Position numbers and translations under genes: made by a program. 63,177 bases of DNA from an uncultured virus (IMG/VR IMGVR_UViG_3300037467_002795). Its lineage: Duplodnaviria; Heunggongvirae; Uroviricota; Caudoviricetes. Positions 38,965 through 58,739 of the stretch are shown piece by piece. The notes below the pieces were generated by a model. It was not told the origin of the DNA, made no database searches, and was given only the letters and a program-made list of their open reading frames with translations. The stretch is taken from the IMG/VR virus record IMGVR_UViG_3300037467_002795, one strand, 5' to 3'. The number at the start of each line of letters is the position of its first letter. Positions within the stretch are counted from its first letter, which is position 1.

Positions 38965-39070
38965 GCAGTCGACTCTGTCGACGGGAGTGAAACTCCGGCA
39001 GGAAAGTGAGCAGGGGTGGCCACAAAGCGAACCATGCAATCCCCCCTGTTAACACCTTCCCCTGCCGGAC
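38965..39070. repeat. Composite element: two hairpins + A + B' + A'
   Basis: GTCGAC-TCT-GTCGAC, GGAGT-GAA-ACTCC, GGCAGGAAAGTGAG ... GCAATCCCCCCTGTTAA ... CCTGCCGGA. Confidence 0.85.
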
Positions 39071-39127
39071 AGCCACTTGCTCAAACCATCCCAAAGACAC
39101 TTATGACTCCACCAGGGAGCGAAGCTC

Positions 39128-39619
39128 ATGTTTAGAACCGAAATCTCCCGCATCATTACCGACCTCCGATACGCCCTCTGTCCCCCGTCGCGGCCCGAGC
39201 AAGACGGCCGTCACAAGGGCATCATTTTCAACCTGACGTTGGACCTGAGCGATTACAGGGAAGATGGGACATCGAGCCTGCGGCAATTCGTCCAGATACT
39301 ATTTTGCGGGAACACGAGCGTCTTTTACCGCAAATCAGACTGGCCATTTACGAACCGTAATAATGAAATGGATTCATGGGTGAACACCTGCAATCATGAT
39401 AGCTGTTGGCGGAGCGACGGGCTCCGGGTCCTAAACCAGATGTATTTCGAAATGGCCGAAGCGGTGAACAGCGAAAAGGCCCCAATTTCACTGCACGACC
39501 ATTCAGGCCTCGGAGTCATCGGTTCCCAACTCTGGGACCTAGTCTGGGTTCAACATGAGCGGGACCCAGACGACCAGCACAGATACAAGCGACGGCTTGT
39601 GAAACTGGAGGCGAGATGA
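39128..39619 (+). CDS. Hypothetical protein
   Basis: Start preceded by a GAGC-GAA-GCTC hairpin. Confidence 0.65.
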   Translation: MFRTEISRIITDLRYALCPPSRPEQDGRHKGIIFNLTLDLSDYREDGTSSLRQFVQILFCGNTSVFYRKSDWPFTNRNNEMDSWVNTCNHDSCWRSDGLRVLNQMYFEMAEAVNSEKAPISLHDHSGLGVIGSQLWDLVWVQHERDPDDQHRYKRRLVKLEAR

Positions 39620-39831
39620 GCACGACTCAAACTTGCCCATCCTGCGGAAGTGAGATGGAGAAAAAGAACAGGAGGCGAATGAGCGACGAGCAAAAGTGGT
39701 GTGGCGAATGGTGGAATTGCCTGTGCCGCAATGGGAAACAGTGCAACTCGACCGTTCTGATTCCAAGTCAAGAACTCGAGTCATTTTTGACAAAACAGGC
39801 TCTGGTTTCCGACAGGGGGCGAAGCCCATGA
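39616..39831 (+). CDS. Small Cys-rich protein
   Basis: CPSC; coupled to both neighbours. Confidence 0.5.
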   Translation: MSTTQTCPSCGSEMEKKNRRRMSDEQKWCGEWWNCLCRNGKQCNSTVLIPSQELESFLTKQALVSDRGRSP

Positions 39832-40268
39832 ATTGGCAACATTCATTCATCGCCAGAATCGACCTCCCCGAAGTGCTAAAAATAGACCCAGAGTGGGACG
39901 AACAGACTTACCTTGCCGTACTCAAGCACCGCGTGGCCCGTGTTGCCCGGTGTCCGATTGGACACGGAATAGTCGGGGTGGTGGTGTACGGGGCGACTCG
40001 ACGCCTCCAGGAAGTCGACCGACTCCTGGTGGACCCCCAGTATCGGCGGTGCGGGGTGGGAACCGCCATGTTGCGCGACCTGGCGGCCCTCGGGCTTCGC
40101 AAGCACCGTCCGTGGATTGCCGGGTGGGTCGGCGAAGCCGATTTAGCCTCCCAGATTTGGCTCCGGGACCTCGGGGCCCAGGCTGTTTGTACGGAGGGAG
40201 ACCAGTATCGCTTCGTGCTCCAGTCGCGAGTTCTGGCGAACTCGCCTGTCGCACGGTCAATTTCTTGA
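39828..40268 (+). CDS. GNAT acetyltransferase, RimI-like paralog
   Basis: DLPEVLKID..VDPQYRRCGVGTAML. Confidence 0.75.
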   Translation: MNWQHSFIARIDLPEVLKIDPEWDEQTYLAVLKHRVARVARCPIGHGIVGVVVYGATRRLQEVDRLLVDPQYRRCGVGTAMLRDLAALGLRKHRPWIAGWVGEADLASQIWLRDLGAQAVCTEGDQYRFVLQSRVLANSPVARSIS

Positions 40269-40279
40269 AGGGGGCAACC

Positions 40280-40615
40280 ATGCATAAAGAACGACTGTTA
40301 AGGCTGGCCGACCTCCTCGACATAGTCCCGGCGGACCAGTTCAACTTATCGCACTGGAAGTGCGGAACCACAGCGTGCGCGGTCGGGTGGGCATGTACCA
40401 TCCCCGAATTTCAGGCCGAAGGACTACATCTTACTGATAACGACCCGGTCTTCGGGGATTTCGCCAGTTGGCCAGCGGTAAGGATGTTTTTTGAGCTTGA
40501 CAAGCAGGATGCCAACCATTTGTTTTTCGTCTGGGATTATCCAAACCGGAACAGAACCACACCCGCTGAAGTGGCAACTCGAATTCGGGAATTGGTCCTC
40601 GATTCAAGCAAGTGA
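40280..40615 (+). CDS. Hypothetical protein, family P2
   Basis: MHKERLLRLADLLD..FNLSHWKCGTTACAVGWA..EVATRIR. Confidence 0.75.
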   Translation: MHKERLLRLADLLDIVPADQFNLSHWKCGTTACAVGWACTIPEFQAEGLHLTDNDPVFGDFASWPAVRMFFELDKQDANHLFFVWDYPNRNRTTPAEVATRIRELVLDSSK

Positions 40616-40638
40616 CTCGACTTCCATTAGGAACAAAC

Positions 40639-41001
40639 ATGTACAAAGAACGATTGCTGAAACTGGCCGATTTCCTGGGCCAAGTTCCGGTCGAACAATT
40701 CGACCTGGCCCGGTGGCGATGTGACTCAAGTGCGTGCGCCGTAGGTTGGGCCTGCACAATGCCGGCCTTTATAGCCGAAGGCCTGAAAATCGCACACGAC
40801 GGCCTTGGGTGGTTTCCCGCCTTTAAAGGTCGAGGCGGCTGGGAAGCTGTGGACTTTTTTTTCGAGCTTAATCCTTATGACTCGGAATATTTGTTCGACG
40901 AAGGTTGTTACGATGGTGAAACGAAAGCGTCTCCCGCCGAAGTCGCCGACCGTATCCGAAAGTTCATAGAAAGTGGCGGCAAACGAGACGCTTGTAACTG
41001 A
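40639..41001 (+). CDS. Hypothetical protein, family P2
   Basis: MYKERLLKLADFL..CDSSACAVGWA..EVADRIR. Confidence 0.75.
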   Translation: MYKERLLKLADFLGQVPVEQFDLARWRCDSSACAVGWACTMPAFIAEGLKIAHDGLGWFPAFKGRGGWEAVDFFFELNPYDSEYLFDEGCYDGETKASPAEVADRIRKFIESGGKRDACN

Positions 41002-41021
41002 ACAGTCTCTTCGTGAATTAT

Positions 41022-41135
41022 TTCCGGCAGTTGACTTCGTCAACGGGAGTTTTGCTCCCACAGTTGGCGAAGCCGACAAGACCGGAGGTCCGGCAGGCGG
41101 CTTTGCCGCCGTCAGCGAAACTGACCAGGGAAGTC
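41022..41135. repeat. Tandem array of six short hairpins embedded in motif A fragments
   Basis: GTTGAC/GTCAAC, GGGAG/CTCCC, GTTGGC/GCCGAC, GACC/GGTC, GGCGGC/GCCGCC, GTCAG/CTGAC. Confidence 0.85.
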
Positions 41136-41183
41136 AGGATTCTTCAGGGACGATTTCGATTGTGCCAACCGGAGTGAAACGAC

Positions 41184-41552
41184 GTGAGATTTGACAGACT
41201 CACCCTCCTCGCCTCCTTCCTCGAATCCGACTGTGTGCCAGAGGCACACTTCCATCTGGAGAACTGGGAGTGCGGCACCACCGCGTGTGCGTGCGGCTGG
41301 GCCGCACGAATTCCCCAATTCAAGGAATCAGGATTCAAACTAAGCTCATTAGGTAATCCGCTCTTTGAAGAGTTTTCTCGCTGGGACGCCGTAATGAGGT
41401 TCTTTGAACTGACCAGGAGCCAGGCCGAGTACCTGTTTTTGGCCAGGTGTTACATAGGTGGCTACCAAACCACCAAGTGGGAAGTTGCCGAGCGTATTCG
41501 GGATTTCGTGGCGGCGAACCGCCTGACACCATCACTTACTATTGAGTGCTGA
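41184..41552 (+). CDS. Hypothetical protein, family P2
   Basis: DRLTLLASFLE..WECGTTACACGWA..EVAERIR. Confidence 0.75.
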   Translation: MRFDRLTLLASFLESDCVPEAHFHLENWECGTTACACGWAARIPQFKESGFKLSSLGNPLFEEFSRWDAVMRFFELTRSQAEYLFLARCYIGGYQTTKWEVAERIRDFVAANRLTPSLTIEC

Positions 41553-41582
41553 CGCACTCAAGCTATTCTAAAAAGACTTCTC

Positions 41583-41706
41583 GCAGTTGTCTCCGACGAC
41601 GGGAGCGAAGCTCCCACAGTCGGCTTTGCCGACAGGAACGTAGTTCCGGCAGGAGAGGGAGTATGGGGCGAACATCCAATCCCCCCTATTAAGCCTTTCT
41701 GCCGGA
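41583..41706. repeat. Composite element: four hairpins + A + B' + A'
   Basis: GGGAGC-GAA-GCTCCC, GTCGGC-TTT-GCCGAC, GGAAC-GTA-GTTCC, GGCAGGAGAGGG ... CCAATCCCCCCTATTAA ... TTCTGCCGGA. Confidence 0.9.
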
Positions 41707-41764
41707 GATTTTACTCCCGTCGGTTACGCCGACTCTCTGACTGACCCCCTAAATAAGGAGCATT

Positions 41765-42166
41765 ATGAGTTGCGAAATCAACAGTCCGAAGGACTGGTTT
41801 GAGGCCCTGGTCCAAGCCAGCCGCGACGGCCAGTTTCCCTCCAGAGACCCCGACAGAGGCTGTCGGTATCGGTGTGAGGACGGCCGCAGATGTGCGATTG
41901 GCTTTCTGATTCCGGACGAACAATATAGCCCCGAGCTTGAGGGAACGGGTTGCCGGGCCCTCATGAAGCTCAATCCCGGTCTTCTTCCGCCCTGGCTCAA
42001 CCCCGAAACGGGGACCATGGTTCAGTCTATTCACGACCGAATGGCCTACAAAATTGGCCACGGGGGACTGGGAGGGTGGGACCACTCACAGTTTGTCCGC
42101 GACCTACTCGATGTGCCGCTCTTTGCGGGAATGCCGCTGCCGGAGGACTGGTCGGGACCGAACTAA
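41765..42166 (+). CDS. Hypothetical protein, family P1
   Basis: LVQASRDGQFPS..CRYR..GRRCAIGFLIPDE..IHD. Confidence 0.75.
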   Translation: MSCEINSPKDWFEALVQASRDGQFPSRDPDRGCRYRCEDGRRCAIGFLIPDEQYSPELEGTGCRALMKLNPGLLPPWLNPETGTMVQSIHDRMAYKIGHGGLGGWDHSQFVRDLLDVPLFAGMPLPEDWSGPN

Positions 42167-42420
42167 CAGACGGAGCTGTCGAACTCGGGTCATTCCAGCA
42201 CCCAGACCAGGCTTGTTATTTACTAGGCGCCGAGGACCACGGATTGAACCCGACCGCTTTGGCGGCTTGTCATGAAGTAGTCGTGCTTCCGGGTCTGCGA
42301 ATATGCTTGAATGTCGCAACGGCTGGCTCGATTGTGTTGTGGGACCGGCTCAATAAGGGGAATTGGAAGTATGGGCCTGCCCACGCGACCAAAATGAAAG
42401 CGGTTCGACATCAGCTTTGA
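42148..42420 (+). pseudogene. C-terminal fragment of a SpoU/TrmH RNA methyltransferase
   Basis: LVGTEL..F.HP..YLLGAEDHGL..CLNVATAGSIVLWDR SPOUT motifs; no N-terminal half and no start codon of its own. Confidence 0.7.
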
Positions 42421-42446
42421 CCAGGGGTGGATGGACTGCGTTAAAT

Positions 42447-42537
42447 TTCCGGCAGGAAAGGGACATGGCAATATCCATCCAATCCCCCTTATTAACCTTC
42501 TCTGCCGGAACTACGTTCTCGCCAGCTCCGTTGACTG
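42447..42537. repeat. Composite element A + B' + A' + reverse hairpins
   Basis: TTCCGGCAGGAAAGGG..CCAATCCCCCTTATTAA..TCTGCCGGAAC-TAC-GTTCT. Confidence 0.85.
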
Positions 42538-42565
42538 CTCGATTGACTACTTATTGGAGAAGTTT

Positions 42566-43513
42566 ATGTCCTACACGATGACCGCTGCCGACCTGTTCGC
42601 CGGACTAGGCGGAAATACCGAAGGAGCGGCCCAGGCTGGGGTTCACGTAGTGGTCGCAGCTAATCACCTGCCCCATGTTGTTGAGACCCACGCGAGGAAT
42701 CATCCCGAGACCTCGCACTATACACAAGACCTTCAGCAGGCCAACTTCGGCACCTGGCCCGACTTCGACCTCCTTCTCGCCAGTCCCTGCTGTCAAGGTT
42801 TCAGCAACGCGAGGGGCAAGGATAAGCCCCAGCACGACGTAAGTCGGTCCACTGCGTGGGCAGTTGTCTCGGCGACCGAGGCGAAAAAGCCCAAATTCTT
42901 GATGGTGGAGAACGTGCTGGGCTTCCGGCGGTGGACACTGTTCCCGCAATGGAAATCGTGCCTGGAAAACTTGGGGTACGTCCTACACGAGAACGTCCTG
43001 GACGCGGCCGACTTCGGTGTCCCCCAGGAGCGGGAGAGGTTGTTCGTGACCGGTGTCCACCGGTCCGTATCCGACTGCCCGGCGGTGGTCTCCCGGCCGG
43101 GGCTCGACCGGATACCAGCCTCGGCCATTATCGACTGGAATTTTGACTGCTGGAGCCTCGTCGACAAGCCAGGACGAGCCGAAGCCACCCTTCAGCGAAT
43201 CGCTAACGGTCGCCGACAGTTCGGACCTCGATTTGTTGCCCCTTTCTACGGGAGCGGGTCTGGGACGACCGGCCGGAGCCTGGACCGTCCTCTCGGAACA
43301 ATTACCCGGAAGGACAGATGGATGCTGGTTGACAACGACCGGTGCCGGATGCTCCAGCTCCACGAGAACCGCCGCGGGATGGGGTTCCGGGACGGCTACA
43401 TCTTACCTGACGACCCGAAAACGGCCCTGGCCATGCTCGGGAACGCGACCTGTCCGCCAGTTGTTCGTCGGGTAGTCCAAACTTTCCAGAAGTACGTGGG
43501 GAGTACCGCATGA
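42566..43513 (+). CDS. DNA (cytosine-5) methyltransferase
   Basis: DLFAGLGG (motif I), SPCCQGFS (IV), VENV (VI), PQERERLF (VIII), LGNA (X). Confidence 0.92.
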   Translation: MSYTMTAADLFAGLGGNTEGAAQAGVHVVVAANHLPHVVETHARNHPETSHYTQDLQQANFGTWPDFDLLLASPCCQGFSNARGKDKPQHDVSRSTAWAVVSATEAKKPKFLMVENVLGFRRWTLFPQWKSCLENLGYVLHENVLDAADFGVPQERERLFVTGVHRSVSDCPAVVSRPGLDRIPASAIIDWNFDCWSLVDKPGRAEATLQRIANGRRQFGPRFVAPFYGSGSGTTGRSLDRPLGTITRKDRWMLVDNDRCRMLQLHENRRGMGFRDGYILPDDPKTALAMLGNATCPPVVRRVVQTFQKYVGSTA

Positions 43514-43524
43514 CGGGCACATAG

Positions 43525-43614
43525 TCCGGCAGTCAGCCCTACTGACAGGACCGAAGGTCCAGCAGTCGGCTGAGCCAACCGGAGTGCAACTCCGGCAGGG
43601 AAGTGAGGTAGTCC
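43525..43614 (+). repeat. Composite element: four hairpins + A
   Basis: GGACC-GAA-GGTCC, GTCGGC-TGA-GCCAAC, GGAGT-GCA-ACTCC, GGCAGGGAAGTGAGGTAGTCC. Confidence 0.88.
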
Positions 43615-43722
43615 ATTGGCTTGCCCGTGAGCGAAGCGAACCTGATGGCCTCGCGAAGCGAGCAACAACGAGGCAACGTAATCAGCTCCGTGTTACAAAT
43701 TGACGATTCATAATACCCAGTT

Positions 43723-44169
43723 TTGGGAAACCCAGCTGTGACCGCAAAACCAATTTCCTCGACTCGCGACTGCCTCTGGCCCAAAACAGGACAGCTTGTT
43801 CGAAACGAACGACAGAGGCGTTGGGGACAGGTGGTCTGGGACGCCAGAAAGTGCCAATTCGAGTCTGGGCAACCAGAGCGTGTTTTGGTGTGGGATACCG
43901 AGCGGCGGGGCACAATGGACTGGCCGTTTGCGGACCTGTCGCTGGTCGTGGATAAAGGGAAAATCGTTTGGGAAGACCCCGGCCTGGCCACCCGCCTGGA
44001 CCAAGAGTGGCGAGAGGCAGAACGCCGAACGAACTGGGGACACGCTGACGAGCTCGGCGATTCACCGGGTAACGCCGACCAACCTGATTCGACCGAGGAA
44101 GTTCCAGTAACTGACCCTATTCCGGCAGTCGGCCTTGCCGACGGGACCGCAGGTCCGGCAGGGAAGTGA
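43723..44169 (+). CDS. Hypothetical protein whose C-terminus and stop lie in a repeat element
   Basis: Ends PAVGLADGTAGPAGK*; start uncertain. Confidence 0.5.
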   Translation: MGNPAVTAKPISSTRDCLWPKTGQLVRNERQRRWGQVVWDARKCQFESGQPERVLVWDTERRGTMDWPFADLSLVVDKGKIVWEDPGLATRLDQEWREAERRTNWGHADELGDSPGNADQPDSTEEVPVTDPIPAVGLADGTAGPAGK

Positions 44170-44223
44170 GGTAGTCCGTCGGATTGCAGCGGCGACAGCC
44201 ACCCATGCAATCCCCCCTATTAA
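44120..44223 (+). repeat. Composite element: two hairpins + A + B'
   Basis: GTCGGC-CTT-GCCGAC, GGACC-GCA-GGTCC, GGCAGGGAAGTGAGGTAGTCC ... GCAATCCCCCCTATTAA. Confidence 0.9.
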
Positions 44224-44239
44224 GCCGCGAGGAGCCATC

Positions 44240-44557
44240 ATGAAAAAGATTGTGGTTTACGACTATTACGGCCAGGCCGTTTACGTGGACGGCAAGTTAG
44301 CCGGATATTACGGACACAACAACGACTTTGATGTCGCAGAACTTTGTGGCCAGCTCGGTATTTCCTTCGAGGAACGCTCGGTACGGTGGGAAGACTGGCC
44401 GGGCCAAAAAGAAAATACGCGAGCGGTATACGACCCGCCCGTAAAGCTGGAGACCGTCGAGCAACATTTCGCGGAACTGAACCGTCAACGAAAAGTTGAC
44501 CGTCTGGAACAACTCAAAATGGAAGTGGCCAAACTGGAACAGGAACTGAGTCACTAA
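44240..44557 (+). CDS. Hypothetical protein
   Basis: GAGGAG RBS. Confidence 0.65.
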   Translation: MKKIVVYDYYGQAVYVDGKLAGYYGHNNDFDVAELCGQLGISFEERSVRWEDWPGQKENTRAVYDPPVKLETVEQHFAELNRQRKVDRLEQLKMEVAKLEQELSH

Positions 44558-44750
44558 AAAGGAGCAATTATGAGTTTCCCCCTCGCACCAGAGGATTTGG
44601 TCGACATGATTTACGAACGAGTCCGCGGCATGAACACCGCGGAACTGGTCGCGTTTTGGCGAAAGAATTTTGACGATGTCGATGTGCGGGAGTCTCAGAC
44701 TGGGACTGGGTGTGTCGCGGTGTTTGAAATCGCCGTCTGAGGAGGTGCCC

Positions 44751-44975
44751 GTGACCACCTTACTCCGAGACTACAAGGAAATCGACGCCCACCACGAAGT
44801 TTATTGTCGCCAGCGGGCCCAAATTGAGCTCCTGAACATCCTGCTCGAAGCGGAGCGGAACACGCCGGGTCACCGGATGAACCGCACGAACCGGCTCTGG
44901 CGACTCCGGGAAATTATCGAGCGGTATCCCGAGTTCGAATATTTAGCCGAAGGAGTTTTAGGTGACAAAACGTGA
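44751..44975 (+). CDS. Hypothetical protein
   Basis: GAGGAGGT RBS, GTG start. Confidence 0.55.
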   Translation: MTTLLRDYKEIDAHHEVYCRQRAQIELLNILLEAERNTPGHRMNRTNRLWRLREIIERYPEFEYLAEGVLGDKT

Positions 44976-45342
44976 ATATTTTGACCTACTGGTGCAGACA
45001 TCGGCGGCCGGCAAGTTTCCAGCGGGAGACCTTGCGGGATGCTACTACCGAGTCCCGGAAGATGTGACTAGTTGTGGCGACCGCTGTGCCGTTGGAGTGC
45101 TGATTCCAGACGAGGTTTACCGCAAGTCATTCGAAGAAGCCGGGCCGGTTAATTCCCTTTTTAAGACCTATCCTGACCTGGAGCAGTTTATCCCCGAAGG
45201 TCTAACCACTGAAGACCTGCGGCGGATTCAAGTTCGCCACGACCGACACAGTTCGCGGCCGTGGAATCACGACAGATTTGTGCAGGAACTGCTCGCGTTG
45301 GACTGTTTTCGAGAGTTCGACTCGGTGCGCAATGACCCGTAG
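44962..45342 (+). CDS. Hypothetical protein, family P1
   Basis: YFDLLVQTSAAGKFP..CYYR..CAVGVLIPDE..RHD. Confidence 0.75.
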   Translation: MTKREYFDLLVQTSAAGKFPAGDLAGCYYRVPEDVTSCGDRCAVGVLIPDEVYRKSFEEAGPVNSLFKTYPDLEQFIPEGLTTEDLRRIQVRHDRHSSRPWNHDRFVQELLALDCFREFDSVRNDP

Positions 45343-45607
45343 ACCCGAAGGTATGTTGCTTGAGGTGTTTTACTACTCCTCAGGAGTAGCTCTTCCTCTG
45401 GCAAAAGGTGATTGAGGTAGTCGGCAATGCGAGATGTTGACGCCTACTCCCTCTTCGACTGCCGGAGTAATACCGAGGTGAAAGGCCAATTTTCGATGCG
45501 GGCTCGCGTGAAAAATGCAGTGGTTTTTCTTAAGTCGTTGCGTAGCAAAGACAAGAAAAAGTGTCGATTTTTCCGACACATCAAAAATACTTGGGAGACC
45601 GTGCAAA

Positions 45608-46027
45608 ATGCACGATAAACTGACTCGCCAGGCCTATTTCGACCTGCTCGTCAAGACCAGTGCTGAGGGAGGCTTCCCGTCATGGGGCCTTGTTGACCCC
45701 GACTGCGGCGATGGGTGCCTTTATAGGGGTCCCGATGGTCGCCAGTGTGCAGTGGGACTCCTGGTACCCGACGAGCTTTACGCTGACTACATGGAAGATG
45801 TCAGGGCGGACCAACTATTCGAAGAGAATCCGGCTTTGCGACAGGTGATTCCCGAAGGGCTGACGGCTGGTGACCTGAGCGGAATCCAGAATGTCCACGA
45901 CGCTCTCGCGGGTCGGGTGTCGCACTATGGCGGGATATGGCCGCACGAGGAATTCGTGGCGAAGTTGTCAGGACTCGACTGTTTTCGTGGTTTGACTGTC
46001 TCTGCCAGTAGTTTTTGTATCAGTTAA
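45608..46027 (+). CDS. Hypothetical protein, family P1
   Basis: YFDLLVKTSAEGGFPS..CLYRGPDGRQCAVGLLVPDE..VHD. Confidence 0.75.
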   Translation: MHDKLTRQAYFDLLVKTSAEGGFPSWGLVDPDCGDGCLYRGPDGRQCAVGLLVPDELYADYMEDVRADQLFEENPALRQVIPEGLTAGDLSGIQNVHDALAGRVSHYGGIWPHEEFVAKLSGLDCFRGLTVSASSFCIS

Positions 46028-46033
46028 GGAGTA

Positions 46034-46234
46034 TTGATGACACTTGAAGAACGCCGGACTCGGCTAAATACCCTGTCCAAAGACCAGCTCATAAAGCTCC
46101 TGGAAAACATTCACGACCAACTTTACTTGTCAACCGAAAGCGGAGCGTCCTGCCTGGATTTTGATAGTCCGTGGAACGGAAGCGACATTTGCGAGGCTGT
46201 TACCTCGGTTTTTGACCAGATTCTTCCTCGTTAA
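46034..46234 (+). CDS. Hypothetical protein
   Basis: AAGGAG RBS. Confidence 0.55.
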   Translation: MMTLEERRTRLNTLSKDQLIKLLENIHDQLYLSTESGASCLDFDSPWNGSDICEAVTSVFDQILPR

Positions 46235-46248
46235 CCTGTGGAGCACCC

Positions 46249-46596
46249 ATGAACACGAACGGAACCATCAAGACCCGCCGCGTCAACGCTATGAAGAAGG
46301 CCGACGAGTACAAGTTCATGCAATGGCTTGATACCAAACGGGACTACTTGAGGAACCAGCGGCTGACGGCCCAGCAGATTGCCGAAGAAGCCACGAAGGC
46401 CGTCGGGGCGATGGTCACCCGCAATAACGTAGTCAGTGCGTGTCGGGCCCTGGAATTTTCACTGCCCAAGTCGAGCATCAACCGTGTCAGCAAGGCACGG
46501 CGACGAATTCAGGAGTTGGAAGCGAAGGTCGGAGAACTGGAAGCCCGACTCTCGCACCTCGAAGCACAGCTGGGCGTGACGGCTAAGGTCGCGTGA
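46249..46596 (+). CDS. HTH-like plus coiled-coil protein
   Basis: LTAQQIAEE..VTRNNV; C-terminal heptads. Confidence 0.6.
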   Translation: MNTNGTIKTRRVNAMKKADEYKFMQWLDTKRDYLRNQRLTAQQIAEEATKAVGAMVTRNNVVSACRALEFSLPKSSINRVSKARRRIQELEAKVGELEARLSHLEAQLGVTAKVA

Positions 46597-46614
46597 GTGC
46601 CGAAGGCACCTTTT

Positions 46615-46640
46615 GGCCCCGGTGAACTCCGGGGTCTTTT
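46615..46640 (+). terminator. Possible intrinsic terminator
   Basis: GGCCCCGG/CCGGGGTC stem plus TTTT. Confidence 0.55.
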
Positions 46641-46660
46641 CCATAAATGGAGATATTTAC

Positions 46661-48478
46661 ATGGCTATGACAGCCTCGTATTCGCCCGAAGATAACAAAT
46701 GTCGCTTGTACGCCGACGGCCGACTTCCTCGTGAAACCTATGAGAGGGTCCGGGCCGCCGGTTTCATCTGGGCCGCCAAGCAACAGTTGTTTGTGGCTCC
46801 AGCCTGGACACCCGAGCGAGAGGACTTGCTGCTGGAGCTGTGCGGGGAAATCGGGGACGAAGACACTTCGCTCGTTGAGCGAGCCGAAGAGCGAGCCGAG
46901 CGATTCGAAATTTACAGTGAGAAGCGAGAAAACGAGGCCGAGCGGGCTCACGCGGCCGTCGAGCAGCTTGCGGACGGGATTCCGCTCGGGCAGCCGATTT
47001 TGGTCGGTCACCACCCGCAGCGACGAGCGCAGCGAGACAAAGAAAAAATCGAGGCCGGGCTCCGCAAGGCCGTCAACCTGTGGCGGGCATCGCAGTACTG
47101 GGAAGAACGAGCCCGCGGAGCATTGCAGCACGCCAAGTACAAGGAATTGCCGGCCGTTCGGTATCGGCGAATCAAGGGGCTGGAGGCCGACAAGCGGAAG
47201 CAGGAGCGAGTCCTGGCGGACTCTGAAAAATCGACGAAGTCGTGGTTGGCGGAAGGTCTGGAACTGACGCCTGAGCGGGCGTTAGCTATCGCCAACTATG
47301 ACCATATCTCGCGGTGCTTTCCGCTCGCCGAATATCCGAGGGAGTCGCCTGCCTCTCTGTACGAGGGCCAAATGTCCCTTTGGTCAGCTCTCGAAGACCA
47401 AATTATTACGCCCGACCAGGCCCGGGACATTGCCGTGAAGGCTCACGCGGCGACGGCTGTGAGGGCTCGGCGGTGGCTGGAGCACATCGAAAACCGGCTG
47501 CGGTACGAACGGGCGATGTTGGGAGAACAAGGTGGGATTGTGGCGAACAAGAGCAGGCCCGAGGTCGGGGGCGGGTGCAAGTGCTGGGCTTCTCCCCGCG
47601 GCGGCTGGTCCTTCGTCAAGAAAGTGAACAAGGTGTCGGTGACGGTCGAGGACAACTGGGGAAACGGCGGCAAAAACTTTACGCGGACTATCCCCTTTGA
47701 CAAGCTCACGGCCCTGATGAGCAAAGAAGAGGTCGAGACGAAGAGGGCCACGGGGGAATTGGTGGTAACGGAGGACGGGCGAGGTTACTTCGTGTCGTCT
47801 GCGACGACAGTCGGCAAAGCTGACGAGGACGAGGCCTCGCCAGTTGGCGGGAACGGAATTCCGGCAGGAGAAGGGTTAATAGGGGGGATTGGAAGTTTGC
47901 CACACTTCCCTACTCCTCTGCCGGAAAAGAACAAGTTCGAGGTCGCCGCAGAGGCCCTGCGAAACGGGGTCCAAACCGTCTCCGCCCCAAACCTGTTCCC
48001 GACCCCGCCCGACATCGCCCGGCAACTCGTGGGACTGGCGGACATCAGCGACGGGATGAGCGTGCTCGAACCCTCGGCCGGCACCGGAAACCTGGCCGAC
48101 GCCGTCATGCAGCACAGTAAGCCGGGGTCGCTCTGCCTGGTCGAGCTGAACAGCCAGCTGTGTGCTTTGCTGGCGAGCAAGGGCTACTCGGTGGTCCAGG
48201 GCGATTTTTTGGAGCAAAACGGCGATATCGGTCAATTCGACCGAGTCGTGATGAACCCGCCTTTTGACCACGGTCTGGACATCAAGCACGTCAGGCATGC
48301 CCTGACGAAGCTGAAGCCGGGCGGTCGACTGGTCTCGGTTATGGCGAACGGACCCCGACAGCGTGAGGCTTTCGAACCCGTCGCCACGACCTGGGTCGAC
48401 CTGCCGCCGGACTCGTTCAAACAGCAGGGGACGAGCGTGAACACGGCCATCGTCGTGCTGGACGCTTCGGCGGCTTGA
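46661..48478 (+). CDS. DUF3560-like domain fused to an amino (N6-adenine-type) DNA methyltransferase
   Basis: IPLGQPILVGHH N-terminal motif; FPTP, LEPSAGTG (motif I), MNPPF (motif IV). Confidence 0.85.
   Translation: MAMTASYSPEDNKCRLYADGRLPRETYERVRAAGFIWAAKQQLFVAPAWTPEREDLLLELCGEIGDEDTSLVERAEERAERFEIYSEKRENEAERAHAAVEQLADGIPLGQPILVGHHPQRRAQRDKEKIEAGLRKAVNLWRASQYWEERARGALQHAKYKELPAVRYRRIKGLEADKRKQERVLADSEKSTKSWLAEGLELTPERALAIANYDHISRCFPLAEYPRESPASLYEGQMSLWSALEDQIITPDQARDIAVKAHAATAVRARRWLEHIENRLRYERAMLGEQGGIVANKSRPEVGGGCKCWASPRGGWSFVKKVNKVSVTVEDNWGNGGKNFTRTIPFDKLTALMSKEEVETKRATGELVVTEDGRGYFVSSATTVGKADEDEASPVGGNGIPAGEGLIGGIGSLPHFPTPLPEKNKFEVAAEALRNGVQTVSAPNLFPTPPDIARQLVGLADISDGMSVLEPSAGTGNLADAVMQHSKPGSLCLVELNSQLCALLASKGYSVVQGDFLEQNGDIGQFDRVVMNPPFDHGLDIKHVRHALTKLKPGGRLVSVMANGPRQREAFEPVATTWVDLPPDSFKQQGTSVNTAIVVLDASAA
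47840..47926 (+). repeat. Composite element inserted in frame within a CDS
   Basis: GGAAC-GGA-ATTCC GGCAGGAGAAGGG TTAATAGGGGGGATTGGAAG ... CTCTGCCGGAA; the reading frame stays open. Confidence 0.85.
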
Positions 48479-48874: not shown

Positions 48875-49639
48875 ATGCACCTGACTTTTGGTCGCGGCAA
48901 CTCGAAATTAGACCCCTCAATATACACGTTCAGCTTGCCGGCTGGCCACACTTGTCCCGGGGCCTCACTTTGTTTGACAAAGTCGAACCGGGCAACCGGT
49001 ACGATTCAGGACGGGGACAAAAGTGACCCACGCAGTTTTCGGTGTTATGCGGCGACGATGGAAGCGAGGTACAGGAGTGTTCGGGAAAGTCGCTGGAGTA
49101 ACCTTCGGTTACTCAGGAAGGCAAAAACAGAATCGAGAATGAGCCGACTTATTCTCACTTCCCTGCCGGAAAAGGCGGCTCTCGTTAGAGTCCACGATAG
49201 CGGCGATTTTTTCTCCGAGGTATACTTAAAAGCATGGCTGGCGGTCGCCCGAGCCCGTCCTCAGACTCGGTTTTATTGGTACTCAAAGAGCATCGAGTTC
49301 TGGGTTCGGCACCTGGAGGAACTCGGGACCGGGCACGAGCCAGGCCGGGTGGCGAACGTGGTGCCCACGGCGAGTTTGGGTGGTCGGTGTGACGAGCTTG
49401 CTCGTCAGCACGGGTTGAGAACTGCTCAGGTGGTTTTCAGCGAAGACGAAGCCGAGAATCTTAGACTCATAATCGACCATAATGACAGCCTCGCCATGCG
49501 ACACGGACCCGACTTCGCCCTCCTGCTGCACGCCACGCAGCCGGCCGGGACGTCCGCGGCGGCGGCACACCGGGAGCTGAAGGCGAAAGGTTGGACGGGA
49601 TACGCCAAGGAGCGAAGAGTGCCACTGGCCTTGGCCTAG
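48875..49639 (+). CDS. GP88-like phage protein (radical-SAM-related Cys cluster)
   Basis: GNSKL..FSLPAGHTCPGA..C..CYA..RVHDSGDF..YSKS. Confidence 0.7.
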   Translation: MHLTFGRGNSKLDPSIYTFSLPAGHTCPGASLCLTKSNRATGTIQDGDKSDPRSFRCYAATMEARYRSVRESRWSNLRLLRKAKTESRMSRLILTSLPEKAALVRVHDSGDFFSEVYLKAWLAVARARPQTRFYWYSKSIEFWVRHLEELGTGHEPGRVANVVPTASLGGRCDELARQHGLRTAQVVFSEDEAENLRLIIDHNDSLAMRHGPDFALLLHATQPAGTSAAAAHRELKAKGWTGYAKERRVPLALA

Positions 49640-51093: not shown

Positions 51094-51290
51094 ATTTTCC
51101 CTACCCCCGGATTTGCCGCCATGCGGTCGCAAGCAACCTTCTGTCAGAACTCGAAGCGAGAGGCTGGAAGTGTCCGCCTGAATTGGAGGAGGCGGTCGTC
51201 CGATGTCAGGATGATGACGCAATCGCCATAATCGACAGGCTTGTTGGCGAAGCCGACGGGACCGGAGGTCCGGCAGGAGAGGTTAAGTAG
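51033..51290 (+). CDS. Hypothetical protein ending in a repeat element
   Basis: AGGAGG RBS; C-terminus VGEADGTGGPAGEVK* is encoded by the hairpins plus motif A. Confidence 0.55.
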   Translation: MELDKPITIQDVLSLVHGLLNFPYPRICRHAVASNLLSELEARGWKCPPELEEAVVRCQDDDAIAIIDRLVGEADGTGGPAGEVK

Positions 51291-51315
51291 GAACGCCCTC
51301 CCTTCCCTGCCGGAA
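51243..51315. repeat. Composite element: two hairpins + A + A'
   Basis: GTTGGC-GAA-GCCGAC, GGACC-GGA-GGTCC, GGCAGGAGAGG ... CCTTCCCTGCCGGAA. Confidence 0.88.
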
Positions 51316-51365
51316 CTTTGTTATTGATAGTTCAGCTGGCCACCAGAGTATTTCGAGGAACAATC

Positions 51366-51611
51366 ATGGCCCACTGGCGTGAAAAACTGGACATCAAGCA
51401 ATTTTTACAGGGCGATTCTCTTCCTCCTGACGAGCCCGTTCCTGTGGAATTGGTCACGCAAGTTCGGGAGGAAATCAAGAAGAGTAGGCTACTGCCCGTC
51501 GCCTCATTGCTAGAAGAGCTCGACTATGTGGCTACGGTCGAGGATTTTGATAACTGGCTCGAGGAACTTTACAACGAGGCGGATGCAAAGCGTGTGTGGT
51601 TGGGTCTGTAA
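51366..51611 (+). CDS. Small acidic hypothetical protein
   Basis: GAGGA RBS; FDNWLEELYNEADAKRVWL. Confidence 0.6.
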   Translation: MAHWREKLDIKQFLQGDSLPPDEPVPVELVTQVREEIKKSRLLPVASLLEELDYVATVEDFDNWLEELYNEADAKRVWLGL

Positions 51612-51631
51612 ATCGAAACAAGGAGCCAATA

Positions 51632-52630: not shown

Positions 52631-52719
52631 CGGCACCGTGGAAAGACTCAATATAAGAATAGTTTCTGTGAGGAACAAACCTCGCCCGCTTCTCGAACCC
52701 TTACCTCTAGGTAACAAAA

Positions 52720-54880: not shown

Positions 54881-54901
54881 GGCATTAATAGGGAGGATTG
54901 C

Positions 54902-55339
54902 ATGGATATGTACACCGGTCTTCGGGCGTCGGTCGTCGTCAAGCCCGAATGGCGAGCGGCCATCGGCCTTTTGCACGAAACGGAAGCAGATGACCGTTGG
55001 CGGCGAGTATTTGATTCCTTCCCGGCAATTCCGGGTCTGAACAAGTGGGTCGAAGTTTGGCGGCGGGATTATATCCCATTCGGCGACCTGGCTTATATGC
55101 CAGAGGACTTTAGCGAGGCTGAAGACAGAGAATCCTACTCGACATACGAATTCGCCAGCGGCAAATGGACCTTTTGTTGTTCGCTGAAGAACTACGAAAA
55201 TGAAATTAAAATTTTCGTCGAAAACGTTCTTGCCCACATCGTGGAACGGGTCGAATATTGCGAGTCTCTCTATGAAGACTATCCGCCGGGTGACTGGCGG
55301 AAGTGGACCACAAGATGGCTTAAGGAGGGGAACGTATGA
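54902..55339 (+). CDS. Hypothetical protein
   Basis: MYTGLR..CSLKNYENEI; the start lies in motif B. Confidence 0.65.
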   Translation: MDMYTGLRASVVVKPEWRAAIGLLHETEADDRWRRVFDSFPAIPGLNKWVEVWRRDYIPFGDLAYMPEDFSEAEDRESYSTYEFASGKWTFCCSLKNYENEIKIFVENVLAHIVERVEYCESLYEDYPPGDWRKWTTRWLKEGNV

Positions 55340-55650
55340 AGTGGAAGTTGTTGTTCAAGGCCCCGGGCGGCCACCGGTATTTCGAAGCCGAAGACGGTCG
55401 CGTTGCCGTCGCGGATGATTCGGGAGCGACCCCGGACAAAACCGAAGACGGAGTGCTGTACCTGGACAAGAGTCGACCTATCAAGATGGGGAAATTCGGG
55501 TCAATCCCGGTCCTCACGGAAGAAGGTGAACAAACGTCTGTTCTGGAAGTGGCGGAAGGTGCCATTTTGGTTGCAAACCGGTTCAAAATGTTGATTAATG
55601 CCGGCCAGCAGCACTTCGACGTTGCCCCGGTGATGGAGATGCCGTCCTGA
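55336..55650 (+). CDS. Hypothetical protein
   Basis: AAGGAGG RBS. Confidence 0.6.
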   Translation: MKWKLLFKAPGGHRYFEAEDGRVAVADDSGATPDKTEDGVLYLDKSRPIKMGKFGSIPVLTEEGEQTSVLEVAEGAILVANRFKMLINAGQQHFDVAPVMEMPS

Positions 55651-55692
55651 GTCACTCTTGTGCTTGCTTTTTGTGTCTAACTGGAGAAAAGC

Positions 55693-55956
55693 ATGGCTAA
55701 CGGAAATTCGAGTGGCGGGATGGGACTGGGTGGGTTCTTGATGGGTGGCCTGACGATTTTGTTCGTCGGGCTGAAGCTGGGCGGTGTCATTGATTGGGAC
55801 TGGCTATGGGTGCTCGCACCTCTCTGGCTACCCATCGTGGCAGTAATCGGGATTTTCCTTGCCAGCGTAGTTTTGGTCGCCATCGGGGCGAGCATTTATT
55901 ATCTGTGCGGGGCTCTGGCGGGCTATTTATCCGACCGCAAACGGACTATTCGCTAA
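55693..55956 (+). CDS. Small membrane protein
   Basis: LTILFVGLKLGGVIDWDWLWVLAPLW motif, common in phage membrane proteins. Confidence 0.75.
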   Translation: MANGNSSGGMGLGGFLMGGLTILFVGLKLGGVIDWDWLWVLAPLWLPIVAVIGIFLASVVLVAIGASIYYLCGALAGYLSDRKRTIR

Positions 55957-55963
55957 AGTAGAT

Positions 55964-56087
55964 AGTCGGTTTCACCGACAGAAGCGTAATTCCGGCAGGG
56001 AAGGGACACAGGGGTGATTGGCGGGTGGAGTTTCAGCGAGCGAAGCGGACCATGCAATCCCCCCTATTGGCCCCTACCCTGCCGGAA
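55964..56087. repeat. Composite element: hairpin + A + B' + A'
   Basis: GTCGGT-TTC-ACCGAC .. TTCCGGCAGGGAAGGG .. GCAATCCCCCCTATTGG .. CCCTGCCGGAA. Confidence 0.88.
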
Positions 56088-56128
56088 TTTTACCTATTCG
56101 CTTCTTTAGTCCCTTAAAAATAAAACAA

Positions 56129-56332
56129 ATGCCAACCCGCGAGATGGTTCTGTTTGTGTTCGTTCCCCTGAGTGGGGGTCTAATTTCACTCTGGTTTGGC
56201 TACAGATTTAGCCATATCGCACCACCCGTGCGTCTGCTAATTTCATTTTGCGCCGCGGGCATCTACGGCTGGCTAATGGCTCATCTTTATAACAAGCTGG
56301 AGGCTTGGAATGGCCGCCGAAAAGCTTCTTGA
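56129..56332 (+). CDS. Small membrane protein
   Basis: Two hydrophobic segments. Confidence 0.5.
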   Translation: MPTREMVLFVFVPLSGGLISLWFGYRFSHIAPPVRLLISFCAAGIYGWLMAHLYNKLEAWNGRRKAS

Positions 56333-56870
56333 CCAACGCGACTACGAAATCAGCTGGGCTACCCCGCCACTGCACCGCCCCGCTCGAGTCGTCATTAAAG
56401 GGGAGTCTTATGGGCTCCAGGCCGCACTACACCTTTTAAACCAAAATCCAGCCCTCTGGCCACTCCGCGTTTGCTGGTCGCCCGCGACAGCGATGGAGGT
56501 TGAAAAAGCCGGTGCCGGGGTGCGAAAATTGGAGGATGGGACCGTCGCGGTACTGGCCGAAGACGGTCGAACCTTGCTGATGGGTAAACCGGCCCCGCTC
56601 ACTCGACAGGAGGCCGGACGGCTCTGGAAGCTGGCGGACGACCTCGTTTCAATACTACAGGTTGCCGGGGTTCATGTGGACCAAGGACCGGATGAGGTGG
56701 TCTACTCGGCTGGCGACGAGTTGGAAACCGTGGCGGTCGTGGGAGCCACTGGCGACCTGACGTACAGTCAGGTCTGGTGGGCACACCACCACCAGTACCA
56801 GGCCAGCCTCATCGCGGCTCATGCTGTACTATGGCCTCTTTATGTTGTGGCTAGTCGCGTCTATAGCTAA
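56310..56870 (+). CDS. Hypothetical protein
   Basis: GGAGG RBS. Confidence 0.55.
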   Translation: MAAEKLLDQRDYEISWATPPLHRPARVVIKGESYGLQAALHLLNQNPALWPLRVCWSPATAMEVEKAGAGVRKLEDGTVAVLAEDGRTLLMGKPAPLTRQEAGRLWKLADDLVSILQVAGVHVDQGPDEVVYSAGDELETVAVVGATGDLTYSQVWWAHHHQYQASLIAAHAVLWPLYVVASRVYS

Positions 56871-56883
56871 AAGGAGTAAGCCA

Positions 56884-57267
56884 ATGTCTGAGATTAACCC
56901 CTGCACGCTTTGGGCGTTTCTTGAGAAGTTTTACCAAAGCGATGAAAAAGACCTGACATCTTTACTTGTTGCCTGTGATTATCTGGGAGAACATGGCGAT
57001 TCTCGGGGTGAGAACCTTCGTCGTCGCATCAAGCGGCAGGCTGCTCTGAAGGCAAAAGTAGCCGTTAAGTATGGGGACGGATACTCACAACGAACAAGCT
57101 GTGGGCTACACAATTATGTACGTGACATGTTTCCCGAATGCAAAACCTCATACAGCCTCTTAATGAGAGAAAAGGTCGACAGAACAATGAGGCGACTGTG
57201 GGGCCTTTTACCGAGTCGCCAGGAACAGTCGCACGACACCGGAGAAGTGTCCTGGAGCTCGAAATAA
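56884..57267 (+). CDS. Degenerate TIGR02996-like protein
   Basis: AFLEKF..DLTSLLVACDYLGEHGDSRGENLR. Confidence 0.5.
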   Translation: MSEINPCTLWAFLEKFYQSDEKDLTSLLVACDYLGEHGDSRGENLRRRIKRQAALKAKVAVKYGDGYSQRTSCGLHNYVRDMFPECKTSYSLLMREKVDRTMRRLWGLLPSRQEQSHDTGEVSWSSK

Positions 57268-57371
57268 TCACGCACGACCTTGTGCGAGCCCAGTATTACG
57301 CTAAAATATGCTCTATTGAACCGAATGAGGCAAGAACGCAGGCCCTGGCGGGGCCGACTTCAGGAGGCCCC

Positions 57372-58103
57372 ATGAATCAAGAAAACGCCTTGCTCCGAGC
57401 TATTTGCGAGAATATCGACGACGACACGCCTCGGCTTGTTTTCGCCGACTACCTCGAAGAACGTGGCGAAGAAGCCTGGGCCCAGTTCATCCGAAGCCAC
57501 ATTGCCGCCACAAGAGCTGGCGTAGCCGAGTTCGGAGACGAATCGAACGACCGCTCGTTGAAACTCGAGTTTGTGCCACCCAAAACCGTGGTGGTCAAGG
57601 TTGTTCCTCCGGACGGCCCCGATAAGACTGGTTCAGACTCGAGCGTGCCGCTTTTTCTTCAGTGGGCTAAGCGACTTGGGCTTCCTGACTGCCTCGAATA
57701 TTGCAAGCTGAGTCGATGGGACCGCGGATTTCCTGCTGTTTATAGTGTCGAATCCGCAGTTGGCTTCTCCCGGTCTGTTAAGACATCACTATTTTCTCGA
57801 GTGCCCATCCGACATTTTAAGGTCGAGTCCAGACAACCACAAGAAATGTCGGCATATGCCGGCTCGCATTCTTGGTTTGAGTGGCGCAAGCAAATAAAAG
57901 GCAACCGCGGGAGATATTTTCTTCCAGCAAGTATTTTTGAGATACTCGACAATCCAGCCCAAAACATAAGCTTAGTGCATTTTTTCTCCAGAAAAGAAGC
58001 GGACGAAGCCGCGTGGACTGCGTATGCGAGGCGAGGGCGGGTTTTGAATTTGGGTCATACTGGGGAGAACCGGGTTGCCGGGTGCTCAGTCACGGAGCGT
58101 TAA
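57372..58103 (+). CDS. TIGR02996-domain protein
   Basis: ALLRAICENIDDDTPRLVFADYLEERGEEAWAQFIR; WDRGFP. Confidence 0.85.
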   Translation: MNQENALLRAICENIDDDTPRLVFADYLEERGEEAWAQFIRSHIAATRAGVAEFGDESNDRSLKLEFVPPKTVVVKVVPPDGPDKTGSDSSVPLFLQWAKRLGLPDCLEYCKLSRWDRGFPAVYSVESAVGFSRSVKTSLFSRVPIRHFKVESRQPQEMSAYAGSHSWFEWRKQIKGNRGRYFLPASIFEILDNPAQNISLVHFFSRKEADEAAWTAYARRGRVLNLGHTGENRVAGCSVTER

Positions 58104-58347
58104 TAGAGGGGATTGGATGGACTCCGTCCATCGGAGGCGGCTGTGAACCCTGACGAAATCCGAGCCGAATATGCCCGTATCGAAGCCGAGGAAGAGGCCG
58201 CCGAACGCGAAACTCAAACTTGTCTCTCTCTGGCTTCGAATGCAGAAATTGCGGGAGTAGTGTTCACACTCGCGGGCGGAACCTTGTGCGGACGAGTGCT
58301 CTGACTACCGCCAGGCTTTTGACTAACATGCCTTCCGGAGAAGAAGC

Positions 58348-58554
58348 GTGGAAAGGATGAAATGGATACGGGACGCCGACAGCAGCGACCAGCGAAGTTC
58401 GTGCGGCCGGTTCCTCATCCGCCGAACCTGCACGAATCCCAAATGGTGGGGTTACTGGAGTTTGACCGACACCACAACCGGAGAAGAATTTCCTTGTAGG
58501 ACAGAGTCTTCAGCTAAGACCGCGGCCCGCAATAGGCGAAATGCAACTGGCTGA
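58348..58554 (+). CDS. Hypothetical protein
   Basis: Small ORF. Confidence 0.45.
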   Translation: MERMKWIRDADSSDQRSSCGRFLIRRTCTNPKWWGYWSLTDTTTGEEFPCRTESSAKTAARNRRNATG

Positions 58555-58585
58555 TGTTCTGAGTCCTTTAAATCGTCAAAGTCTA

Positions 58586-58739
58586 TTCCGGCAGGAGAGG
58601 GACAGGGTGGTGTCGGAAGAAGGCTCGGCCCACCCAAGCAATCCCCCCTATTAAGAGTGAGTGAAGCGAATTTACCCCTCTCTAACCCTTACTTCCCTGC
58701 CGGACCTTCGGTCCCGTCGGCGGACGCCGACTGCCGGAA
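58586..58739. repeat. Composite element A + B' + A' + reverse hairpins
   Basis: TTCCGGCAGGAGAGGG..GCAATCCCCCCTATTAA..CTTCCCTGCCGGACC-TTC-GGTCC GTCGGC-GGAC-GCCGAC TGCCGGAA. Confidence 0.9.

Follow-up and report, generated by a model that had tools for sequence, protein, structure and literature searches.

What kind of element is formed by the small hairpins that run into the word GGCAGG in the DNA of an uncultured virus (IMG/VR record IMGVR_UViG_3300037467_002795), and does it act as DNA or as RNA? The stretch analysed, 63,177 nucleotides in length and referred to throughout as the window, is phage DNA from a soil phage lineage. A preliminary description of positions 38965-58739 had reported hairpins of varying stem sequence whose loop reads GNA on the strand of an adjoining motif, here termed motif A, and had proposed that they are read as single-stranded or cruciform DNA, as promoters, priming signals or nicking/recombination sites, rather than as RNA stem-loops. 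The DNA-level part of that interpretation is supported, and among the options offered the recombination site fits best, whereas the promoter option, modelled on coliphage N4, is not supported. With a probability of roughly 0.55, the mini-hairpins belong to a family of small DNA repeats, mosaic in make-up and specific to one phage lineage, most like repetitive extragenic palindromic (REP) sequences and bacterial interspersed mosaic elements (BIMEs), or transposable elements of the miniature inverted-repeat type (MITEs), and are not promoters or RNA stem-loops.

The window falls into a left part (1-28000), with a G+C content of ~64% and genes chiefly on the minus strand, and a right arm (28001-63177), with a G+C content of ~55% and genes that codon scoring places almost all on the plus strand. 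Two other contigs serve for comparison. The viral contig G001 is identical to window 1-21123 and adds 19.8 kb beyond the window, and the relative G002, a 100-kb contig, shows 92-94% identity over window 1561-15529 and 98.7% identity over the G001 extension. The phage genomes compared are incomplete (27-66% by CheckV). The region of the hairpins has no DNA counterpart in G002, and a blastn search of window 38000-45900 against 50,697 deposited phage records gave no match.

Motif A and the hairpins that adjoin it

GGCAGG is the core of an asymmetric word of 16-19 nt, AnTTCCGGCAGGRRAGkGa (motif A), of which 94 non-redundant copies lie on both strands of ~183 kb from two related phage genomes, or approximately one per 2 kb. 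A logo of these copies shows no conservation upstream of -4. GGCAGG itself is found 91 times against 41.2 expected (standard deviation, sd, 6.1), and the 13-mer TCCGGCAGGRRAG is found 42 times in G002 (19 forward, 23 reverse), compared with none for a reversed control. The 13-mer is also present in one to six copies in each of five soil Acidobacteriota/Terriglobia genomes (3.8-7.1 Mb). Motif A is absent as a repeat from relatives at ~50% amino-acid identity; a scan of species-representative genomes with an 18-mer of the motif returned at least 120 loci, and among the matches listed (80) all are single and in unrelated taxa, pointing to no host; and five other viral contigs with a 16-mer match hold one chance copy each. 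As judged from these sequence comparisons, motif A is genuine and particular to a single phage lineage; its conservation between the window and G002 is uninformative through ascertainment.

The hairpins that adjoin the motif come as a module of 33 nt, in which a first hairpin (hpB, GTYGRC-N3-GYCRAC) is followed by a second (hpC, GGRNY-GNA-RNYCC), and which is placed between the CCGG and the CAGG of motif A, either singly or in tandem arrays of two or three. The period of the arrays is 33 nt, and the units are edged by CCGGCAG- or CCCACAG-like heptamers. All nine hairpins listed in the preliminary description lie where they had been placed: seven are perfect, with 5-bp stems and 3-nt loops (38984, 41635, 43548, 43581, 44144, 51259 and 58702), that at 41080 has a 4-bp stem, and that at 42507 reads GGAAC-TAC-GTTC. 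The TTC and TAC loops described for inverted copies are seen at 58702 and 42507, respectively, and the second, upstream hairpin is likewise present, as hpB.

Perfect 5-bp stems with 3-nt loops were counted against 100 dinucleotide shuffles. In the right arm, GNA triloop hairpins number 23 against 2.4 expected (sd 1.4) and TNC triloop hairpins 19 against 2.3 (sd 1.4), with other triloops little enriched (45 against 34.1, sd 6.3). No triloop excess is evident in window 1-28000 (GNA, 3 against 2.2; TNC, 3 against 2.2) or at four loci of relatives at ~50% protein identity (GNA, 5 against 4.6; TNC, 6 against 4.0). For G002, summed over five 20-kb bins, there are 34 GNA and 27 TNC hairpins against ~8.4 expected for each, a 3-4-fold enrichment. 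The GNA loop tracks the orientation of the motif and not the transcribed strand: GNA and TNC are both enriched on the plus strand of a region whose genes are nearly all on that strand.

The position of the loop relative to the motif is equally regular. Of the 56 CCGGCAGG sites in the window, six carry a triloop hairpin whose perfect 5-bp stem finishes on the motif's CC, such that only ~1 in 9 motif copies bears one, and five sites in G002 carry one too; in all 11 the loop is GNA on the motif strand, as had been claimed. The same is true of 22 of 24 aligned modules (GAA 9, GCA 6, GGA 4, GTA 3), the remaining two having longer loops. Loop statistics, which had been proposed as a check, show GNA predominant in this alignment and enriched against shuffles in the right arm. 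The rule is restricted to the hairpin adjoining the motif (hpC/hpA), the loops of hpB being chiefly T-first (TTC 5, TCT 3, TCC 2, TTT 2). Retention of a GNA loop points to folding as single-stranded DNA. Only GNA among the 64 triloops is described as giving a stable DNA mini-hairpin, and the RNA version is far weaker, with a melting temperature of 39 C versus 76.5 C for the tetraloop form (PMC13037366).

Pairing within the modules

The 24 modules aligned were hand-picked by eye as recognisable paralogous copies. Their stems vary in sequence while pairing is kept, as first reported: 90.9% of 264 cells are paired versus 79.7% in shuffles, and 35 stem changes are double-sided versus 12.0 in shuffles (neither value is reached in any of 500), although the manner of selection inflates the percentage paired and overstates the independence of the copies. 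Slid-alignment controls are 17-49% paired, and as many as four pair types occur at inner stem positions (columns 11-18 and 27-33). Stem mismatches show no strand bias (G.T 11, A.C 16), nor do nearest-neighbour folding energies favour either strand. A metagenome scan with an array pattern neutral to loop and stem gave one match, judged on reading to be due to chance.

Pairing of this kind could also reflect dimer symmetry, if the sites were double-stranded binding sites, in the form of operator, centromere-like or nicking-site arrays, for a phage DNA-binding protein or HNH nickase. Motif A is compact, highly conserved and dense on both strands and in genes, and in a conserved GP88-like gene it is kept in place with no indel; among the products of the phage, moreover, are several HNH/EndoVII-like nucleases, an ERCC4 nuclease and a protein with a ParB-like domain that might act at such sites. 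Sequence-specific nicks are known in phages, for instance at the consensus of the phiKMV group, but the known sites described there are on one strand only (PMC3517423), whereas motif A is on both. The stems, however, vary freely over columns 11-18 and 27-33 while remaining paired, which argues for a folded structure rather than for half-site recognition, and the G..A of the loop is asymmetric. A role as double-stranded protein-binding sites is thus quite doubtful.

Gain and loss of modules

Modules are present in one genome and absent from another. At window 12220, where the window has an 'empty' motif A (12212..12223, plus strand), CCGG and CAGG are parted in G002 by precisely one extra two-hairpin module of 33 nt, and the 60 nt to either side are identical in the two genomes. 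The site is outside the range of the preliminary description and inside a strongly coding open reading frame (ORF) at 11713-13962 on the minus strand. The module is antisense to this ORF and in frame, and its 11 extra residues are the sole indel between the two proteins, which are 98.4% identical (749 aa in the window, 760 aa in G002; coding score 193.6). In soil run X10, one contig is without exactly 41047-41079, that is, 33 nt or one period of the 41024-41096 array, with the joint at 41046-41080, a depth of 247.8 and 255 nt on the shorter side. None of the other joints of this type was used; most have a side of just 20-26 nt (43 nt in one), probably the result of repeat effects, and two have longer sides of 65 and 80 nt.

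At window 3595, the hairpin sets of the window and G002 differ beside the same inverted motif. The alignment of ~33 kb contains six indels of at least 9 nt, of which two are hairpin modules and one is a 16-nt palindrome. Modules are also found in different surroundings. The same module subfamily follows CCGGCAGG at the non-homologous G002 loci 5855 and 95975, with a compensatory A-T to G-C change between the two, and a 79-nt array with 88.6% identity sits in unrelated contexts in the window and G002. A larger element, 47840-47935, lies in frame in the inter-domain linker of a 621-aa DUF3560-methyltransferase gene, whose homologues have a gap of 25-31 aa at this site. Presence or absence is seen for 33-nt modules between close genomes, and for the whole element only against homologues of ~50% identity. 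A 16-nt insert in G002 (at 90329; window 6910) makes a perfect 7-bp hairpin with an AAA loop, and none is present in the window.

The antisense in-frame module, the gain and loss of modules and the symmetry of the stem mismatches together favour a DNA-level element over RNA stem-loops. If the elements are a mosaic repeat family, the hairpins would owe their importance to folding of the motif strand as single-stranded DNA, for example in exposed replication or recombination intermediates, where a C-GNA-G triloop would be exceptionally stable. Modules may then be copied to other motif A sites, or expanded or lost, by a structure- or site-specific enzyme, or else through template switching that uses the short homology of the CCGGCAG repeats on either side. 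Effects on mRNA, if any, would be secondary, as for REP and Correia elements. It has also to be asked whether the 33-nt unit is a 'nano-insertion' that one of the HNH/EndoVII-like or ERCC4 nucleases of the phage places between CCGG and CAGG by acting on GNA-stabilised single-stranded hairpins, with motif A as the nicking or landing site and spread through the genome by short-patch conversion. Such a mechanism is unlikely; if true, no mobile DNA module with site specificity as small as this unit would have been seen before.

Relation to genes and transcripts

Copies of motif A are often arranged as convergent pairs (A+ and A-) 30-100 nt apart that fold into nested palindromes or long hairpins. 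Within the pairs lies a Shine-Dalgarno (SD)-like box, TAGGGGGGATTGG(ATG), or its complement, and both are present in the fullest copy, 55992-56085. This box B (TAATAGGGGGGATTGG, often followed by ATG) resembles an extended SD sequence and serves real genes, for instance at 33368 and 54902. Copies are found at window 28542-28564, 33353-33372, 38267-38289, 54885-54907 and 58100-58122, and inverted copies, for example, at 41672-41692 and 44203-44226, with the anti-SD-like complement inside palindromes.

Six gene starts (window 31047-31070, 33077-33100, 38437-38460, 39107-39130, 39807-39830 and 61721-61744) have the motif-A-like TCCGNCAGG followed by a hairpin of 3-5 bp whose loop is GAA or GCA; its 3' arm touches the ATG, and its 5' arm contains an SD-like GGGAG or GGGG.

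Such arrangements would suit RNA-level intercistronic cassettes that stabilise mRNA, provide processing sites of the RNase III type, or modulate translation by masking the SD-like A and B. Eight of 13 long palindromes tested fold strongly as RNA (z -3.2 to -5.6), but in the other five the fold is no stronger than that of shuffles. Motif A, rich in purines, resembles an SD sequence, and an ATG is found at +16 to +20 in 17 of 102 copies; the ORFs that follow, however, are mostly short and not conserved, and an ATG 12-26 nt away opens an ORF of at least 40 codons for only 6 of 102 copies. The last count led to the rejection of motif A as a general gene-start signal. Box B+ is the real ribosome-binding site of several genes, with B- its complement, and GNA hairpins directly precede six start codons. 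The right-arm arrays lean with the genes (eight with gene direction, and hence with GNA on the sense strand, and three against), whereas solo copies of the motif are randomly oriented with respect to local genes (24 co-oriented, 26 anti-oriented) and 40 of 86 copies are genic by crude gene calls.

Correia elements are described as being processed by RNase III (PMC10969869), which provides a precedent for RNA-level cassettes. GNA triloops, on the other hand, are not specially stable in RNA (PMC13037366), inverted copies would place UNC loops in the mRNA, pairs of the G.U type are not in excess over A.C (11 versus 16), and one module occupies a coding ORF in frame and in antisense orientation. 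RNA-level cassettes are, on balance, unlikely. Terminator-like sites (a stem with a U-tract) do not coincide with any module, true ones lying elsewhere, for instance at 36292-36316, and the whole window has no Rfam match at or above the gathering threshold. The sequencing runs listed for the window DNA include no RNA run.

Hairpin promoters, priming signals and candidate enzymes

The likeness to coliphage N4 that underlies the promoter proposal concerns the hairpin. N4 has three early promoters, in which the template strand bears the GNA loop, and a virion polymerase of 3500 aa (PMC4496689), and its DNA hairpin, which extrudes at physiological supercoiling, combines a stem of 5-7 bp with a 3-nt loop containing a sheared G:A (PMC4496689; PMC13037366). 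The modules have stems of 5-6 bp and 3-nt G..A loops that match the N4 promoter hairpin (PMC4496689), and they could be taken for single-stranded hairpin promoters, or for primase or priming signals, at which a polymerase reads the extruded GNA hairpin beside motif A. Mini-hairpins are recorded at G4-type origins (PMC13037366), the relative G002 encodes DnaB and a Toprim primase, and one module, 36330..36369, sits directly after the canonical terminator 36292-36316 and ahead of a gene without a sigma-70-like promoter.

The distribution of the modules is nevertheless unlike that of the N4 promoters. There are dozens of sites, some of them within ORFs, their orientation is independent of the genes, and the hairpin accompanies only a ninth or so of the motif copies. 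Moreover, since the GNA loop of N4 is on the template strand, most arrays here would fire antisense to genes, the loop being on the sense strand in 8 of the 11 window arrays. No phage-type RNA polymerase was found among the ORFs of the window or of G001 and G002, genomes that are incomplete, and the 3067-aa ORF is a tape measure protein. Promoters or priming signals of the N4 type are thus very improbable. Motif A as part of a sigma-70 promoter was also considered and rejected, with nothing conserved upstream of -4 and no enrichment of sigma-70-like sites (seven against 4.6). In a 281-aa ORF (window 20746-21591, minus strand), sigma-70 region 2 is matched below threshold (E 8.8e-4; 19.5 bits, with the cut-off at 24).

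A search for a virion RNA polymerase, a primase or an HUH nuclease elsewhere in the genome had been suggested, and only the second turned up in these incomplete genomes, in the form of the Toprim primase encoded with DnaB in G002 and the G001 extension. PF00940 gave no match over G001-G004, but its positive controls gave none either. The Y1/HUH transposase of the REP-associated tyrosine transposase (RAYT) type, PF01797, had no match in G001-G004, with controls matched in 6 of 14 genomes, and no HUH transposase was found among the window ORFs scanned. Because the genomes are incomplete, absence of such enzymes is not proven. The only transposase-like item is a TnpB-like fragment at the end of G002. 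This contig-end ORF of 196 aa (G002, 75-665) has a TnpB/Cas12f-like TNB domain, and a copy of motif A lies 46 nt downstream of it.

Comparison with known repeats

Small palindromic repeats such as REPs, BIMEs and MITEs are a hallmark of bacteria and rare in phages, where spare DNA is purged. The phage lineage described here tolerates a motif approximately every 2 kb together with modular hairpin inserts, even in structural and methyltransferase genes. Like REPs (GTAG and CGTC) and BIMEs, the elements consist of short palindromic units of 20-40 nt in high copy, with variable paired stems and short loops, which form head-to-head dimers and clusters, combine as mosaics with conserved linkers, and include intragenic copies. 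REPs have been proposed to be mobile as single-stranded hairpins, and the main text of the survey that discusses this does not contain the word 'phage' (PMC3733652). The present elements differ in being phage-borne, in having two hairpins of 5-6 bp per unit rather than one stem of 6-13 bp, and in being placed at a constant position within a separate motif of 16-19 nt. Their units are edged by CCGGCAG or CCCACAG in place of a GTAG or CGTC tag, and no RAYT was found in G001-G004.

With MITEs, exemplified by the Rickettsia palindromic elements (RPE) and Correia elements, they share terminal inverted repeats around a short segment, here the pairs TTCCGGCAGG .. CCTGCCGGAA, as well as insertion in frame. 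Such MITEs are described as mostly intergenic and strain-variable, and as able to insert in frame in proteins (PMC10969869), and phage contigs are reported to carry MITEs, of which 99 fall in phages attributed to a lineage of soil Acidobacteriae (PMC11602168). The elements here are shorter (40-100 nt versus ~100-200 nt), and carry added 33-nt hairpin modules without a counterpart in MITEs, and neither a target-site duplication nor a parent transposase was seen. In Cluster K mycobacteriophages, the start-associated sequences (SAS) and their extended form (ESAS) reportedly consist of a motif containing a ribosome-binding site before some gene starts, with inverted repeats upstream; most copies of motif A are, by contrast, away from gene starts, and half are antisense. 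Arrays of the TIGR-Tas (tandem interspaced guide RNA) type were considered and rejected. Those arrays are long, with units of ~36 nt and two non-complementary spacers, and lie beside a Nop-domain Tas protein (PMC12045711), whereas here there are one to three dispersed units with self-complementary variable parts, and no Nop-domain match in the ORFs scanned. Full-text literature searching brought up no account of double-hairpin modules of 33 nt that sit within a phage-wide motif.

Several observations weigh against a mobile repeat family. Every copy stems from one of two related genomes, so that the counts of modules and motifs are not independent. Plain replication slippage can give rise to period-sized indels in tandem arrays, and the difference at 12220 may have arisen by deletion between CAGG repeats and not by insertion. 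Inspection of the flanks of whole A+..A- elements revealed no consistent target-site duplication, and no mobilising enzyme was seen among the ORFs scanned in these incomplete genomes. Compared with two cyanophage homologues, a solo motif A at 49162-49169 (minus strand) in the GP88-like gene (48875-49639) does not represent an insertion, which suggests that the motif word may be selected or converted in place, a behaviour that a pure transposon model does not predict. Finally, the lean of the arrays with the genes, the purine-rich, SD-like character of motif A and the GNA hairpins directly before six start codons leave room for a role at the level of RNA. The solo motif of the GP88-like gene lies in a conserved protein block, and the length of the protein is unchanged with respect to its homologues.

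Whatever their mode of spread, the 33-nt modules are a clean, countable unit of strain-to-strain change. If a copying process were found, it would be a new way of moving very short DNA, and might explain the shuffling of gene cassettes in phage accessory arms. If the modules are merely slippage-prone repeats, they would still be a marker family of use in following this soil phage lineage.

Individual sites

All sites but the last are described on the plus strand. The module at 36330..36369 abuts motif A at 36363; its hpB has a 5-nt loop, and its hpC reads GACT-GAA-GGTC, with one T.G. At 38962..39001, hpB (38968-38982) and hpC (38984-38996, GAA loop) run into the motif A at 38995, which itself opens a nested palindrome (38995..39068) with a C-rich, anti-SD-like box B- and an inverted A- at 39061-39068; the fold of 38958-39075 has a minimum free energy (MFE) of -46.4 and a z of -3.19. 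Two modules in tandem, and hence four mini-hairpins, make up the array at 41024..41096, which ends in CCGGCAGG at 41090. A second two-module array, 41581..41652, has the loops TCC, GAA, TTT and GTA and runs into the motif A at 41646. From there a palindrome extends to 41739 (A+, B-, degenerate A-, then a different, inverted hairpin pair at 41699-41738), with an MFE of -67.1 and a z of -4.80; the hairpins on its two sides are not mutually complementary. The palindrome at 42449..42541 is composed in the same order (A+, B-, degenerate A-), with an inverted module at its right and hpC at 42507.

In the two-module array at 43526..43598, the hpC loops are GAA (43548) and GCA (43581), and the array runs into motif A at 43592. 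The next module, 44122..44172, has an hpB with a CTT loop, an hpC at 44144-44156 with a GCA loop, and motif A at 44155. Between these two lie ~500 nt (43600-44118) with no coding-supported ORF on either strand, and the flanking copies of motif A have an identical 23-nt continuation. A 223-aa minus-strand ORF (43539-44210) was considered and dropped, since codon scoring gives no support for it, as were small cysteine-rich peptide genes on the minus strand across the arrays, the frames of which differ among copies.

The composite element of the methyltransferase gene (47840..47935, 96 nt) consists of half an hpB, an hpC-like hairpin, A+, the SD-like box B+ and a degenerate A-. At 51237..51313, a module (hpB loop GAA; hpC 51259-51271, loop GGA) is joined to a short palindrome (A+ 51270, A- 51306; z -3.51). 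At 55959..56085, the fullest nested palindrome follows a partly decayed module, with A+ at 55992, B+, B- and A- at 56078, an MFE of -65.2 and a z of -5.51. The last palindrome, 58588..58736 on the minus strand, comprises A+ at 58588, B- and A- at 58696, with an inverted module at its right (58697-58736), the hpC of which reads TTC on the plus strand and thus GAA on the motif strand.

Other features of the phage

Genes identified in the window include those for an intein-bearing large terminase, HNH/EndoVII-like nucleases, an ERCC4 nuclease, GP88-like and L5 gp82-like proteins, a C5 cytosine methylase, the DUF3560-methyltransferase, a MoxR ATPase adjoining a DUF2201 protein, and a ParB-like domain protein. 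The terminase gene (13963-17409, minus strand) is split by the intein, which has a LAGLIDADG domain. Together with the replication proteins named above, G002 and the G001 extension encode the 3067-aa tape measure protein, a split Pol III alpha, ThyX, PhoH, uracil-DNA glycosylase and numerous glycosyltransferases. A scan of the window for tRNA and transfer-messenger RNA genes found none. Where the leftward and rightward gene arms switch, copies of motif A at 28416 (minus) and 28511 (plus) face outwards.

The right arm contains families of paralogous small genes (34014-34064, 38470-38520, 41789-41839 and 45629-45679; 39833-41552); for instance, three adjacent ORFs all match a single G002 gene at 41-47% identity. 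Around window 44212-46867, contig depth is low or nil in runs X9 and X10, with flanks at 100-270. Judged from contig depth alone, some strains may be without this ~2.6-kb block of small genes, which is edged by repeat elements.

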